40,341 nucleotides of DNA from a virus. Taxonomy: Duplodnaviria > Heunggongvirae > Uroviricota > Caudoviricetes. A program made the translations under genes and the position numbers. Each line of letters begins with the position of its first letter. Position 1 is the stretch's first letter. The notes under the pieces are model-generated. The model saw only the letters and a program-made list of their open reading frames with translations, did no database searches and had not been told where the DNA came from. Positions 1,531-40,341 of this stretch are shown one piece after another. The stretch is from IMG/VR virus record IMGVR_UViG_2619619135_000001, positions 1 to 40,341 of that record; one strand, written 5' to 3'.

Positions 1531-1696
1531 TTACATGTTTTCGATGATCGCTTCACCAAACTCTGAACATTTCAGCAGCTTAGCGCCTTCCATCAGACGT
1601 TCGAAGTCATAAGTTACGGTCTTGGCATTGATTGCGCCTTCCATACCTTTAACAATCAGGTCAGCCGCTTCAGTCCAACCCATATGGCGCAGCATT
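1531..1696 (-). pseudogene. icdC: icdC: displaced 3' fragment of the isocitrate dehydrogenase gene (prophage attR junction)
   Basis: Seen: minus-strand translation [54 protein letters not shown]-stop, which matches the Icd C-terminus as I recall it. An in-frame stop lies two codons upstream, so no 5' icd sequence is present. Known: e14 and phage 21 integrate in icd. Confidence 0.85.
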
Positions 1697-1928
1697 AGTT
1701 AGATGACTAAATCGTAACTATTTGACATAGCAACATAATTTTACTAATTTGCATATAACTCATTAGCCCTTAGCATTTCTATAACTCATTGAGTATAAAC
1801 ATGTGTTTTTGAGTTTTGATAACCATTTTTAGCATAAAAATAGCAGTTAACATTTGCAGAGGTTAAGATCAGAGAAAATTTTTACCCTGTAGGGTATTAC
1901 GTCTTAAATGTGACTTTAATAAATAATT

Positions 1929-2762
1929 TTATTTCTGTAATCGGTTTATATTAACGTAAAGCATCTCGATTAGTTCTTTTGCATTTTTACTATAGTGCAA
2001 TTCTCTATGGCAATTCGGACAAAGGGCAACACAGTTATCTGTTGTATCAGCACCACCTGAAGACAGGGGAATTACATGATGCACTTCCAAATATGGGTTT
2101 CCATCATTTAAATAAAACGGAGCATTTTTACCACAGTTTTCACATATACCTTTACTTTGCTGTAAAATCCAAGCTTTTACCATCGGGTCTCGGACATAAA
2201 CTTTTTGTAGTCTTTCTACCTCAACTGGTTTCCTGGAGCCCTCGGGTTGACTCAACGTTTTCTTAATTAATTTACTAACCCTCATATTCAGAAGCGATTC
2301 ATCATCTGTAGGCTGTGAAAGCTCTGATAGTTCTCCACGTATTATAGACGCCCAAAAACTGTCACTATAAATACCTGGAACATTTATCAATATTCGTTTC
2401 GTTCTATTGCCGGAAGGAATTTCCTTTCTCCCCGTACGACTAAAATAAGCCTGATAACCACACATCTTCAAGCGTATATCGCGGGGGCTATTACCAATCA
2501 AAGTAAAATATTCACCAGGATGGATTTTTCTTTCATCCAAAGAATGCATATGTTTTCTGACTGATGATGACGCCAGATATACTACGACTTGGGATACACC
2601 AGAATCAACCAACCGTTCAATGATATAATCAAGAGCGATATTGTAATCTTTGTTTCTGTCACCCGGCCCCCACGACTCAAGGATTAGACCATAAACACCA
2701 TCCTCTTCACCTATCGAACACTCAGCTTTCAGTTCAATTCCATTATTATCAAAAACATGCAT
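1929..2762 (-). CDS. mcrA: 5-methylcytosine-specific restriction endonuclease McrA (HNH nuclease), 277 aa
   Basis: 277-aa ORF with a C-terminal HNH motif (CENCG...HHVIPLSSGG...CPNCH). Sequence and position next to pinE match e14 McrA as I recall it. Confidence 0.9.
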   Translation of the reverse strand: MHVFDNNGIELKAECSIGEEDGVYGLILESWGPGDRNKDYNIALDYIIERLVDSGVSQVVVYLASSSVRKHMHSLDERKIHPGEYFTLIGNSPRDIRLKMCGYQAYFSRTGRKEIPSGNRTKRILINVPGIYSDSFWASIIRGELSELSQPTDDESLLNMRVSKLIKKTLSQPEGSRKPVEVERLQKVYVRDPMVKAWILQQSKGICENCGKNAPFYLNDGNPYLEVHHVIPLSSGGADTTDNCVALCPNCHRELHYSKNAKELIEMLYVNINRLQK

Positions 2763-2868
2763 AATATTAACCTTTAATCAATTTTTCACGACAATACTAC
2801 TTTTATTGATAAAATTGCAACAAGTTGCTGTTATTTTACTTTCTTTTGTACACAAAGTGTCTTTAACT

Positions 2869-3423
2869 TTATTTATCCCCTGCAGGAAACCTCTTATACA
2901 AAGTTGACACACCAACATCATAGATAATCGCCACCTTCTGGCGAGGAGCTCCTGATGCAATTAATCGTCCGGCCTGTTCCCATTGTTCTGGTGTAAGTTT
3001 GGGACGACGTCCACCAATTCGTCCCTGTGCGCGAGCAGCTTCCAGTCCAGCTTTTGTTCTTTCAACAATCAGTTCACGCTCCATTTCAGCCAGGGCACCC
3101 ATCACATGAAAGAAAAAGCGCCCCATTGGGGTACTGGTATCAATTGAATCCGTCAGACTACGAAAGTTGATGCCTCGTTCGCGCAACTCCTCCACCAGCA
3201 CGACAAGATGCCGCATACTACGCCCCAGCCGATCCAGCTTCCAGACAACCAGAGTGTCCCCTGCCGATAATGTCCTGAGCAGTTTTTTCAGTCCCGGCCT
3301 TTCGGACTTTGTACCGCTTACCTTGTCTTCAAAAATCAGCTCGCATCCTGCACAGTTCAGCGCATTACGTTGTAGATCTGTGTTCTGGTCATTTGTTGAT
3401 ACGCGTACATAGCCAATAAGCAT
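2869..3423 (-). CDS. pinE: Serine DNA invertase Pin (Hin/Gin/Cin family)
   Basis: Seen: MLIGYVRVSTNDQNTDLQ resolvase N-terminus with the catalytic serine, and a C-terminal HTH. Start moved to ATG at 3421-3423 rather than the upstream in-frame MASFLLL extension. Adjacent to the invertible segment. Confidence 0.9.
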   Translation of the reverse strand: MLIGYVRVSTNDQNTDLQRNALNCAGCELIFEDKVSGTKSERPGLKKLLRTLSAGDTLVVWKLDRLGRSMRHLVVLVEELRERGINFRSLTDSIDTSTPMGRFFFHVMGALAEMERELIVERTKAGLEAARAQGRIGGRRPKLTPEQWEQAGRLIASGAPRQKVAIIYDVGVSTLYKRFPAGDK

Positions 3424-3449
3424 GGTAGATCCCCCTGACAAAAGCAGGA

Positions 3450-38223: not shown

Positions 38224-38278
38224 CAGCGAAATTAACTAGTGAAATAGTTTTGTAGCAAAAGAAATGAGGTTATCAAAA

Positions 38279-38524
38279 ATGCTTCAAATGCTGACACTTG
38301 AGGAATGGGCTGCAGAAAAATTTAGGAGTAATCCTCCAAGTGTGTCCACATTACGTCGTTATGCTAAGCAGAATTTATTTTGTCCACCGGCAATGAAACA
38401 AGGTCGACTATGGCGAGTGCGTGAGGACGCAGAGTTAGTTGGGGAGTTAGTTACTCCAGTAATCAAGAAACGTGATTCTATTATTCTGCAAAGGATTTTA
38501 GGTAATGGCAGCCAGACCACGTAA
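38279..38524 (+). CDS. xisE: Excisionase
   Basis: 81-aa ORF immediately upstream of and overlapping int; GAGG SD 8 nt before the ATG at 38279. Confidence 0.6.
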   Translation: MLQMLTLEEWAAEKFRSNPPSVSTLRRYAKQNLFCPPAMKQGRLWRVREDAELVGELVTPVIKKRDSIILQRILGNGSQTT

Positions 38525-39632
38525 AAATAATGTTTCAGTCCCAAACTTGTATCCGCTTTATAGCAGAAAAGTAAATAAAGTCTATTGGCGATATAAGCAT
38601 CCAGTGACCGGGAAGTTTCATTCTTTGGGCACAAACGAAGCTGAAGCCATTGCTATTGCCACTGAGGCCAATACACGCCTGGCTGAGCAAAGAACCCGGC
38701 AGATTCTGGCTATCAGTGACAGGATCGCAACCAGCAAAGGAAAAGCAATCACAACGTCAACCTGGTTAGATCGCTATCAAGCAATCCAGGATGACAGACT
38801 GAAAAGTGGCGATATAAAGCTCAACACCTATAAACAGAAAGCCAAACCAGTATCCTTGCTCAGGGAACGAGCAGGAATGAAGTTAATTTCATCCGTTGAT
38901 GTAAGGGATATAGCACAATTGCTTGACGAGTATATCACTGCTGGGCAACCGAGGATGGCGCAAGTAGTCCGCTCCGTTCTAATTGATGTATTCAAGGAGG
39001 CACAACACTATGGGGAGGTCCCTCCTGGCTATAATCCAGCATTAGCGACCAAACAGCCCAGAAGAAAAATTACCCGACAACGGTTAAGCCTTGAAGAATG
39101 GCAAAAAATTTTTGATATCGCAGATGCCAGTCATCGTTATATGGGGAATGCCATGCTGTTAGCACTGGTTACCGGCCAGCGGTTAGGTGATATCTCACGT
39201 ATGAAATTTAGCGATATTTGGGATGATCATCTTCACGTCATCCAGGAAAAAACCGGAAGCAAAATAGCAATACCACTGTCTCTTCGCCTGAATGCGATCA
39301 ACTGGAGCCTGAGGGACGTTGTAGCGCGCTGCCGTGATTACGCTGTGAGCCCGTATCTTGTGCACTTCTTTCGCGCGACTTCTCAGGCAGAACGAGGGGC
39401 GCAAGTAAAGTCGAACACTATAACAATGAACTTCAGTAAAGCACGCGATAAAGCGGAAATAGATTGGGGTAATGGCACGCCTGCCACTTTTCACGAACAG
39501 CGCTCATTAGCAGAACGACTATACGAAGCGCAGGGAATTGATACGCAGAAATTGTTGGGGCATAAATCACCAAGTCAGACCGCTCGCTATCATGACGATC
39601 GGGGAAAAGGATGGACCACAATTGCAGTTTAA
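38505..39632 (+). CDS. intE: Tyrosine integrase (icd-targeting, e14 IntE-like)
   Basis: 375-aa ORF with a C-terminal catalytic region (HVIQEKTGSKIAIPL ... LLGHKSPSQTARYHDD); synteny with xis, and icd is the integration site. Confidence 0.8.
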   Translation: MAARPRKNNVSVPNLYPLYSRKVNKVYWRYKHPVTGKFHSLGTNEAEAIAIATEANTRLAEQRTRQILAISDRIATSKGKAITTSTWLDRYQAIQDDRLKSGDIKLNTYKQKAKPVSLLRERAGMKLISSVDVRDIAQLLDEYITAGQPRMAQVVRSVLIDVFKEAQHYGEVPPGYNPALATKQPRRKITRQRLSLEEWQKIFDIADASHRYMGNAMLLALVTGQRLGDISRMKFSDIWDDHLHVIQEKTGSKIAIPLSLRLNAINWSLRDVVARCRDYAVSPYLVHFFRATSQAERGAQVKSNTITMNFSKARDKAEIDWGNGTPATFHEQRSLAERLYEAQGIDTQKLLGHKSPSQTARYHDDRGKGWTTIAV

Positions 39633-39696
39633 AAAGTTTAAATAAACTATCAAAATTCAGGGTATATATGCGTTTTCAAATACATCCCCTGATAAA

Positions 39697-40341
39697 TTAC
39701 TCAACATAAACATATTTAGAAGCAAACCAAATCATCGGCTTTCCGTTTACACCCTTATATTTATCGTTGAAATTAGCATCTGTCTCCGTAGCGGAAAAGG
39801 TTATAAAATACATACCGGGCGATTCAACTTTGGCAACATAATTGAGTGTTCGCTCCGCCGATATTGGCACTTTCCATTCATATATTGGTATGTTTTTTTC
39901 ATTTGTATTTGATGCTATATCTTCATATATATTAGGGGTGTAAGTCTTTATGGATTTAACTTTATCACCACGCACCTCAATTGCCCGTATAGACACTGAG
40001 TCATTTTTTAGCTTAATGAATATCGGTTCTGAACCACTATTTTTTATACTCACAACTGGAGTAATATAGTATCCATTAGAAGACTTCGTAAAGGTGGCAT
40101 CAATATTAAAAAATGTTGATTCTGTATTTCTTATTTTCTGCTGAAGTTCAGCATATTCAGCTTCGGCTTTATCTTTCTGATGTAAAGCATCAAATGTGTA
40201 TGCTCCCCATACCAATGTTAGGATGGCGCATAAAGCGATAGCAATATTGTTGAAGTTGCTATGGTTTTGCCAGATATTCCTAGCTTGCCAAGCAAGAACA
40301 ATCACCAATAGCGCTAATAATACCCATCCCACAATAATCAT
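39697..40341 (-). CDS. Membrane-anchored cargo protein, possibly 5'-truncated by the window edge
   Basis: ORF runs to the last base of the window; two N-terminal hydrophobic helices then an Asn/Lys-rich soluble domain; AT-rich; no HExxH motif, so not Lit. Confidence 0.4.
   Translation of the reverse strand: MIIVGWVLLALLVIVLAWQARNIWQNHSNFNNIAIALCAILTLVWGAYTFDALHQKDKAEAEYAELQQKIRNTESTFFNIDATFTKSSNGYYITPVVSIKNSGSEPIFIKLKNDSVSIRAIEVRGDKVKSIKTYTPNIYEDIASNTNEKNIPIYEWKVPISAERTLNYVAKVESPGMYFITFSATETDANFNDKYKGVNGKPMIWFASKYVYVE

Follow-up and report, generated by a model that had tools for sequence, protein, structure and literature searches.

Positions 1696-40341 of IMG/VR record IMGVR_UViG_2619619135_000001, together with about 1.4 kb past its end, very probably form a sequence-intact, SfV-like prophage of the e14 type inserted at the icd gene of Escherichia coli. 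We put the probability of this reading at roughly 0.85. The whole stretch of 40,341 nucleotides (nt), called the window below, is E. coli chromosome in the orientation opposite to that of K-12. The SfV-like group consists of lambdoid phages that combine an HK97-type head with a Mu-type contractile tail, and by homology the element belongs to this group. It is a common and already recognised kind of prophage. From position 1531 to 40341 the order is icdC, mcrA, pinE, the tail fibre segment, the tail genes, the head genes, cos, the lysis genes, Q, a nin-like region, the replication genes, cro/cI and xis/int. Gene assignments were made from mechanically called open reading frames (ORFs) and their translations, Pfam, PHROGs, NCBIfam and the annotation of close relatives.

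An earlier, sequence-only reading of this stretch proposed an intact e14-like prophage at icd, of myovirus type, that keeps the modules deleted from the K-12 remnant. The comparisons reported here agree with that proposal. All the features it listed are present at their places, and the icdC junction is identical to that of K-12. The alignment to K-12 e14 that it called for reveals colinear blocks with two exact gaps, and its myovirus assignment agrees with the close relationship to SfII and SfI described below.

Insertion site, integrity and rival readings

The left end of the prophage can be placed exactly. Window positions 1-3503 align with the K-12 region ycgX-iraM-icdC-mcrA-pinE at 99.2% nucleotide identity, and the ycgX-iraM flank has the same value (99.2%). 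The displaced original 3' end of icd, icdC (1531-1695, minus strand), is 100% identical to K-12 icdC in amino acid sequence and adjoins iraM, as an insertion in the 3' end of icd leaves it. The boundary between host and prophage is 1695/1696. In the alignment the junction, where TAGTCATCTAACTA meets ATGCTGCGCCATATGGG, is the same as in K-12 base for base. Annotated relatives in RefSeq have the same order, bluF/bluR followed by the prophage and then icd.

The right end is placed by analogy. The last gene in the window (39697-40341, minus strand) is an int-proximal cargo gene for a 214-amino-acid protein with a hydrophobic N-terminus, 100% identical in amino acid sequence to its J31 counterpart, and the window ends at its start codon. 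This ORF was also considered as icd itself and rejected, since BLAST found no match to K-12 icd and J31 has the cargo gene at this position. In J31, whose int and first cargo gene are 100% identical to those of the element, the cargo gene is followed by a gene for a 360-amino-acid protein and then by icd. The second junction would thus lie some 1.4 kb beyond the window, and the prophage would measure about 40 kb, a size that falls between those of SfV and SfII (37.1-41.5 kb). The sequence-only reading had put both the other junction and any lit-like cargo beyond the window. The analogy with J31 bears out the former; the cargo, which is not lit, already begins within the window.

All 59 proteins were compared by tblastn with SfII, SfV, three E. 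coli relatives and K-12. Every gene for the head, tail, packaging, lysis, regulation and recombination is full length against SfII, SfV or the E. coli relatives, mostly at 93-100% amino acid identity. None is truncated or frameshifted relative to SfII or the close E. coli relatives, which answers the earlier concern about frameshifts or premature stops in essential genes. The weakest matches to SfII are Q (71%) and Rz, which diverges after residue 50. Small signals are present as well: cos, the frameshift site of the tail chaperone, an embedded Rz1 and an S24-type repressor. No insertion sequence (IS) elements, transposases or pseudogenes were seen in the element, and the window contains no tRNAs according to ARAGORN and no Rfam families at the gathering threshold.

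In DNA, about 68% of the prophage aligns with SfII at 96.7% identity. Over the structural module the identity to SfI, SfII, SfIV and SfV is 97-98% (SfI, 97.9%). SfI was induced, forms plaques and has a contractile tail by electron microscopy (PMC3636060), and SfII and SfV were induced and purified earlier and classed as Myoviridae, as cited in PMC3636060. 'SfV-like' is a recognised group of lambdoid myoviruses whose members integrate at several places in the E. coli chromosome; icd ranks with the most heavily occupied integration hotspots (PMC3603311).

K-12 covers 23% of the element, and the blocks in common are colinear. Two segments are missing from K-12: window positions 7068-20347 (13,280 bp), from the N-terminus of baseplate J to the C-terminus of the portal protein, and 22086-32706 (10,621 bp), from the N-terminus of TerL to codon 79 of the replication gene. 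Both junctions can be placed to the base (7067/20348 and 22085/32707), with microhomologies of TACC (4 nt) and ACC (3 nt), respectively. The deletions match two pseudogene fusions of K-12, jayE/beeE and aaaE/oweE; the second bears the annotation 'chimeric replication protein/phage terminase YmfN'. The 3-4 nt microhomologies point to illegitimate recombination as their origin. On this evidence e14 of K-12 is very probably a decayed member of the same lineage, which lost its tail and head genes in one microhomology-mediated deletion and those from packaging to replication in another.

Prophages of this kind are frequent. Of 5426 complete E. coli genomes, 823 contain the 17.5-kb structural block at ≥80% coverage. 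At least 40 genomes have ≥80% of window 1-25000, which places the icdC flank and the full structural module together at one locus. An IntE-type integrase is encoded in 502 genomes, among them many derivatives of K-12. RefSeq already labels intE, xisE, pinE and mcrA in full-length prophages, and GenBank holds a PHASTER prediction, scored 'intact', of one such prophage at icd.

Full-length ORFs do not by themselves make a working phage. The element could be grounded, producing no infectious particles because, for example, its repressor is non-inducible, an att arm is defective or a gene carries a missense lesion, and be kept only for its cargo. We consider this unlikely. In its favour, many E. 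coli prophages are defective, relatives at icd carry IS insertions and pseudogenes, and the four cargo loci could select for retention. Several further points weigh against an intact element. Inactivating missense or regulatory mutations are compatible with intact ORFs, and the element is known from its sequence. The second att junction, outside the window, is placed from one relative, J31. Q and Rz differ from those of SfII, yet both are identical to their counterparts in other E. coli prophages. No e14-type integrase is deposited among the virion genomes of the phage collection, so that a free phage with this integrase is missing from the record; a protein search of the collection at >60% identity returned 689R6 as the sole E. 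coli record, plus a Klebsiella phage at 84%. For SfV-like phages that target icd, infectivity appears to be undocumented in the sources searched. Against a grounded element stand the lack of any truncation, frameshift or IS, the presence of cos, the frameshift signal, Rz1, the S24 domain and all the integrase motifs, and the 93-100% identity of most essential genes to those of working phages. It is perhaps fairly probable that the element would yield infectious particles.

Two further explanations concern its origin. The same gene order, the 99.2% identity of positions 1-3503 and the clean mapping of the K-12 deletions could all be read as signs of the literal progenitor of K-12 e14 before its deletions. 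This is highly improbable: xis/int is 84% identical to K-12 in DNA and Int 93% in amino acid sequence, the immunity region (33864-35908) is of the SfII type, yfdQ/yfdR and the int-proximal cargo differ from K-12, and the structural module is also found behind other integrases (dusA, near glaH, thrW). The GC (guanine plus cytosine) content is patchy across the region, from 30% to 59%, as it might be if two adjacent or nested elements had been joined or the assembly were chimeric. That explanation is scarcely credible, given that the region is colinear from end to end with SfII, SfV and dozens of independent complete genomes, that the patches of low GC correspond to individual cargo genes at sites known to harbour morons, and that the ORF list contains one integrase, one cos and a single set of each essential function.

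A sequence-intact prophage would be expected to behave as its characterised relatives do, and the following scheme is drawn from homology to them. The SfII-type CI, with its S24 autocleavage domain, would keep lysogeny and be inactivated through RecA after DNA damage. Cro, the CII-like YmfL, the single replication initiator and Q would drive the lytic programme, with Q acting at a late promoter that lies upstream of the holin gene and downstream of an antisense cargo pair. The TerS/TerL/HNH set would cut the DNA at the 10-nt cos, and holin, endolysin and the Rz/Rz1 spanins would lyse the cell. Inversion of the 1.9-kb segment by Pin may switch between two fibre tips and so between host ranges. 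Xis and Int would excise the element and restore icd.

Structural, invertible and regulatory genes

The structural and packaging genes are all on the minus strand. The Mu-type baseplate block (5705-10702) comprises gp48/YmfQ, gp47/J, gp46, gp45/V, gp44/P and gp43/N, the last for DNA circularisation; all are full length at 98-100% amino acid identity to SfII/SfV, and the block has the Pfam domains Baseplate_J, GpP-like and DNA_circ_N. Baseplate J (gp47) is at 6280-7338. The tape measure gene (11387-13219; PhageMin_Tail; 98% amino acid identity to SfII) is followed by the tail chaperone gene (13361-13630). A slippery sequence, T_TTT_TTC, is read at 13379-13373, and tblastn indicates that the -1 frame runs on to 13212 into a conserved 60-amino-acid extension. 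The tube (13630-13986; Tail_tube) and sheath (13986-15482; Phage_sheath; 98% to SfII) genes come next. The tail genes between 11387 and 15482 are 98-100% identical to SfII/SfV in amino acid sequence.

Neck and head completion genes occupy 15466-17616. They encode DUF2635, a tail terminator, a neck protein, a head closure protein, a head-tail connector and a small protein, with names from the RefSeq annotation of relatives, and they are full length at 94-100% amino acid identity to SfII. The head and packaging genes (17666-23173) are 98-100% identical to SfII: the HK97-type major capsid protein (17666-18871; Phage_capsid; 100%), the prohead protease (18886-19536; Peptidase_S78; 100%), the portal protein (19514-20755; Phage_portal; 99%), ymfR (20755-20937), TerL (20949-22682; TerL_ATPase/nuclease; 99%) and TerS (22679-23173; Terminase_4).

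The cohesive end, TGCCCGCCCC (10 nt, 23224-23233, minus strand), is the sole exact match in the window. It sits between the HNH and TerS genes, and its flanks match the genome ends of SfV and SfII. The identical 10-nt gap was determined experimentally for the cos of SfI (PMC3636060). The HNH endonuclease gene (23299-23649, minus strand; Pfam HNH; 93-94% amino acid identity to SfII/SfV) adjoins cos and the terminase genes. The lysis cassette (24695-25949, minus strand) consists of the holin (25623-25949; 98% amino acid identity to SfII), a GH24 endolysin, or lysozyme (25143-25619; 96%), Rz (24695-25159) and, embedded in Rz, the lipoprotein Rz1 (24748-24936), whose lipobox LAVSGC is read from the translation. 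Rz aligns with that of SfII over residues 1-50 only and is 100% identical to that of MEI2A.

The serine DNA invertase gene pinE (2869-3423, with an open frame to 3459, minus strand; Resolvase and HTH_7; 96% amino acid identity to K-12 PinE) adjoins an invertible segment of 1.9 kb (3485-5417). The segment is bounded by inverted repeats of 19 nt (3485-3503 and 5399-5417) that are 95% complementary. Its expressed cassette has a fibre C-terminus (4952-5398) and a tfaE-type tfa gene (4350-4952), and its silent cassette has another fibre C-terminus (3504-3959) and tfa gene (3962-4378). In the present orientation the tail fibre gene spans 4952-5701 (minus strand; Collar domain) with its constant N-terminus at 5418-5701; the N-terminal 105-108 amino acids are 92-98% identical to SfII, SfV and K-12. 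The product is a fibre of 249 amino acids. In-silico inversion yields an in-frame fibre of 252 amino acids with the other C-terminus and its own chaperone. In K-12, Pin inverts the P segment. The tfaE-type cassette is oriented relative to its flanks opposite to that in K-12, which indicates that the segment has flipped during the history of these elements; the second cassette (3504-4378) has no K-12 counterpart.

A probable PR'/tR'-like late promoter with an early terminator lies just upstream of the holin gene (26102-26217, minus strand). It consists of a promoter-like site at 26217-26190 and a strong terminator at 26123-26102, and the 90 bp at 26100-26189 are 96.7% identical to the SfII region upstream of the holin gene. 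These features suggest that 26102-26217 may act as late promoter and terminator. The putative promoter would lie downstream of antisense cargo genes, as in SfII, so that the cargo would not necessarily block late transcription.

The genes from 28602 to 33836 are 96-99% identical to SfII in amino acid sequence apart from Q, and all are on the minus strand. The Q antiterminator (28602-28964; Phage_antitermQ) is followed by a nin-like block (28967-31526) with DUF968/HNH, KilA-N, RusA, a protein with the LexA DNA-binding domain only, and PerC/YfdN. The LexA-domain protein (31167-31526, 119 amino acids) has no S24 peptidase; both SfII and SfV conserve it, and it might act as a mimic of LexA that is not cleaved. 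The replication initiator (31984-32940) has Pfam domain HTH_36. The ymfM/DUF4222 interval (32930-33288) contains two overlapping annotated frames, a YmfM homologue of 112 amino acids (97% identical to K-12) and a DUF4222 ORF of 59 amino acids. K-12 annotates the YmfM counterpart as a cell division inhibitor. The ymfL gene (33285-33836) belongs to the CII-like family of PHROGs and is 94% identical to K-12 in amino acid sequence.

The cro (33829-34089, minus strand) and cI (34187-34879, plus strand) products are each 100% identical to those of SfII and J31. CI has a helix-turn-helix domain and, at residues 104-218, Peptidase_S24; the motifs GDSM and KRL and an Ala-Gly site can be read in the sequence. 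By domain and motifs CI is predicted to be a repressor cleavable in the SOS response. The early-left accessory region (35211-38223) includes a 73-amino-acid ORF, a member of the ECs1072 family (35404-35904, minus strand), ymfH-like/yfdP (35989-36669), yfdQ/DUF2303 (36735-37559) and yfdR, an HD-domain 5'-deoxynucleotidase (37660-38223). The recombination genes are on the plus strand: xis (38264-38524; Pfam Exc; 90% amino acid identity to K-12 XisE) and int (38505-39632), an e14-type tyrosine integrase with the domains Arm-DNA-bind_1 and Phage_integrase. Int is 93% identical to K-12 IntE over all 375 residues and keeps the motifs RLGD, HEQRS, LLGHK and RYHDD. RefSeq annotates the integrase and excisionase of relatives as intE and xisE.

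Cargo genes and candidate defence functions

At the icdC end the element carries mcrA (1929-2762, minus strand), which encodes a type IV methylcytosine-dependent restriction endonuclease 100% identical in amino acid sequence to K-12 McrA (PADLOC mREase_IV, E 6.5e-203). A moron between the tape measure and gp43 genes (10793-11305, minus strand) encodes a protein of 170 amino acids with a signal peptide, assigned to phrog_8976, a family of unknown function. Its GC content of 30-35% forms a trough in a tail operon of 55-58% GC. The prophage at dusA in EC02 carries it; it was not found in SfII, SfV, MEI2A, 689R6 or K-12.

A trypsin-like S1 peptidase (Pfam Trypsin_2), encoded on the strand of the late genes (23727-24629, minus) between the lysis cassette and the HNH/terminase genes, is a defence candidate. 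It matches PADLOC PDC-S45 (E 1.3e-44) and, more weakly, models for LmuA and RT-protease. The gene is not in SfV, J31 or 689R6, and SfII has only a partial match (47% amino acid identity). The interval between int and att is variable, with different genes in K-12 (ymfD/ymfE/lit), MEI2A, 689R6 and J31. The 360-amino-acid partner of the cargo gene in J31 (28967-30049 of the J31 stretch) matches PADLOC PDC-S02 (E 3.2e-15).

A low-GC (32-38%) pair of antisense genes is found between Q and the putative late promoter (26211-28605, plus strand). It encodes an NA37/YejK-like protein (26211-27365; Pfam NA37, E 3.7e-46) and a protein of 406 amino acids (27385-28605). Against NCBIfam the pair matches DS1_1 (E 4.6e-29) and DS1_2 (E 1.6e-29), both aligned over nearly the whole profile, with scores below the equivalog cut-offs: 101.5 bits against 330 for DS1_1, and 103.1 against 315 for DS1_2. 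By these profile scores the pair is a distant, divergent relative of the DS-1 anti-phage system and not a member of it. In NCBIfam, DS1_1 is described as an anti-phage protein that is nucleoid-associated. The newly validated defence domains of DefensePredictor include a nucleoid-associated YejK domain (PMC13092281); judging from the names, DS-1 of NCBIfam is presumably that system. The preprint of Vassallo et al. makes no mention of a nucleoid-associated or e14 system. PADLOC 2.0 has no match for the NA37 pair, the 170-amino-acid moron or the 214-amino-acid cargo protein, and the 406-amino-acid protein has no match among PDB sequences.

The exact 406-amino-acid protein occurs in 809 index blocks. 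Among the matches listed, it is in the same prophage slot by Q in all ten contexts, and the NA37 gene is called upstream of it in nine of the ten. The pair is also present in a Klebsiella phage at 68% DNA identity.

A more far-reaching interpretation combines these observations. The element might be a live e14-type virus with a Pin-switchable host range and a multi-layer defence load, made up of McrA, the PDC-S45-like protease, the int-proximal pair with its PDC-S02-like partner and the DS-1-like pair at the Q-PR' moron site, and the last might be a new functional DS-1 variant that protects lysogens from other phages. Taken as a whole this proposal is tentative, and we lean somewhat against it. 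The finding of a sequence-intact prophage leaves current understanding unchanged, and its main side interest is the defence-like cargo, including the divergent DS-1-like pair. If the source strain is available, the cargo provides natural examples of defence-like genes at three phage hotspots (Q-PR', lysis-packaging and int-att), and the element is a candidate for the recovery of an infectious icd-targeting myovirus with an invertible fibre.

Relationship to e14, SfV-like phages, Mu and other elements

The element resembles e14 of K-12 in its integration site, icdC junction and gene order, in the mcrA/pinE/inverted-repeat arm (99.2% nucleotide identity) and in IntE, XisE, YmfL, YmfM and YmfQ (93, 90, 94, 97 and 98% amino acid identity, respectively). 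The original analysis of e14 is reportedly that of Mehta et al. 2004. The two elements differ in other respects. Their xis/int regions are only 84% identical in DNA. The immunity region (33864-35908) equals that of SfII and has no counterpart in K-12, which has ymfK/ymfT as repressor and cro; tblastn of cI and cro found no match in K-12, and the element is without the K-12-type ymfK/ymfT immunity. The yfdQ/yfdR block is not in K-12, and the early-left genes differ. K-12 e14 carries lit/ymfD/ymfE where the element has other int-proximal cargo, and its invertible segment has the other orientation and another second cassette. The CI/Cro pair had been counted among the matches to e14 in the sequence-only reading; this is correct for position and not for homology to ymfK/ymfT. 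The suggestion that the element represents the ancestral form of e14 stands for its architecture and fails for literal ancestry, given the divergence of int, immunity and early-left genes. On these comparisons the element is a mosaic cousin of e14 rather than the phage from which e14 directly descends. It provides a clean full-length reference for reading K-12 e14, in which two simple deletions explain jayE/beeE and ymfN.

Two further records have the structural genes of the element. In ON470584 (vB_EcoM-689R6), a full-length prophage at icd, they are accompanied by mcrA, an invertase and an integrase of the e14 type (95% amino acid identity). It covers 77% of the element and differs in immunity, Q and cargo genes. 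It was considered as an isolated virion and rejected, since the record is a PHASTER prediction and takes in host genes, icd and rluE among them. The 'prophage e14' of strain S88 (NC_011742.1, 2834000-2882000), a comparator in PMC3636060, has the same structural genes and the K-12-type ymfK/ymfT. It was rejected as a full-length e14 at icd because it adjoins glaH, its integrase differs and its invertase is truncated; the case illustrates how loosely the literature applies the name 'e14'.

Phage 21 and NC-SV of E. coli NC101 use the same attB in icd and supply a replacement for the icd 3' end (PMC12803456; PMC3603311). They are lambda-like siphoviruses with different structural genes.

With Mu the element shares contractile tail and baseplate genes of the Mu type (gp38-gp48, L, M, N, P) and, where the tail operon ends, a segment with alternative fibre C-termini and their chaperones that a serine invertase flips. 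The parallel with Gin and the G segment of Mu draws on well-established knowledge. Unlike Mu, the element is without transposition genes and has lambdoid regulation, site-specific integration, cos packaging and an HK97-type head.

The element also resembles SfII, SfV, SfI and SfIV, the serotype-converting myoviruses of Shigella flexneri. Their head, tail, packaging, cos, most nin/replication and lysis genes are 93-100% identical to those of the element in amino acid sequence, the genome plan and size are common to the SfV-like phages, and cI/cro match SfII exactly. The Shigella phages have gtrABC and a P22-type integrase with tRNA-thrW as its target, whereas the element has no gtr genes and its integrase is e14-type, not thrW-targeting. 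They have a fixed tail fibre and are without pin, the invertible segment or mcrA, and their cargo between Q and the holin gene differs. The same structural module is found behind other integrases, at dusA in EC02, adjoining glaH in S88 and at thrW in Shigella. The name e14 thus denotes one integration and accessory arm, here carried on the chassis of a widespread SfV-like myovirus.

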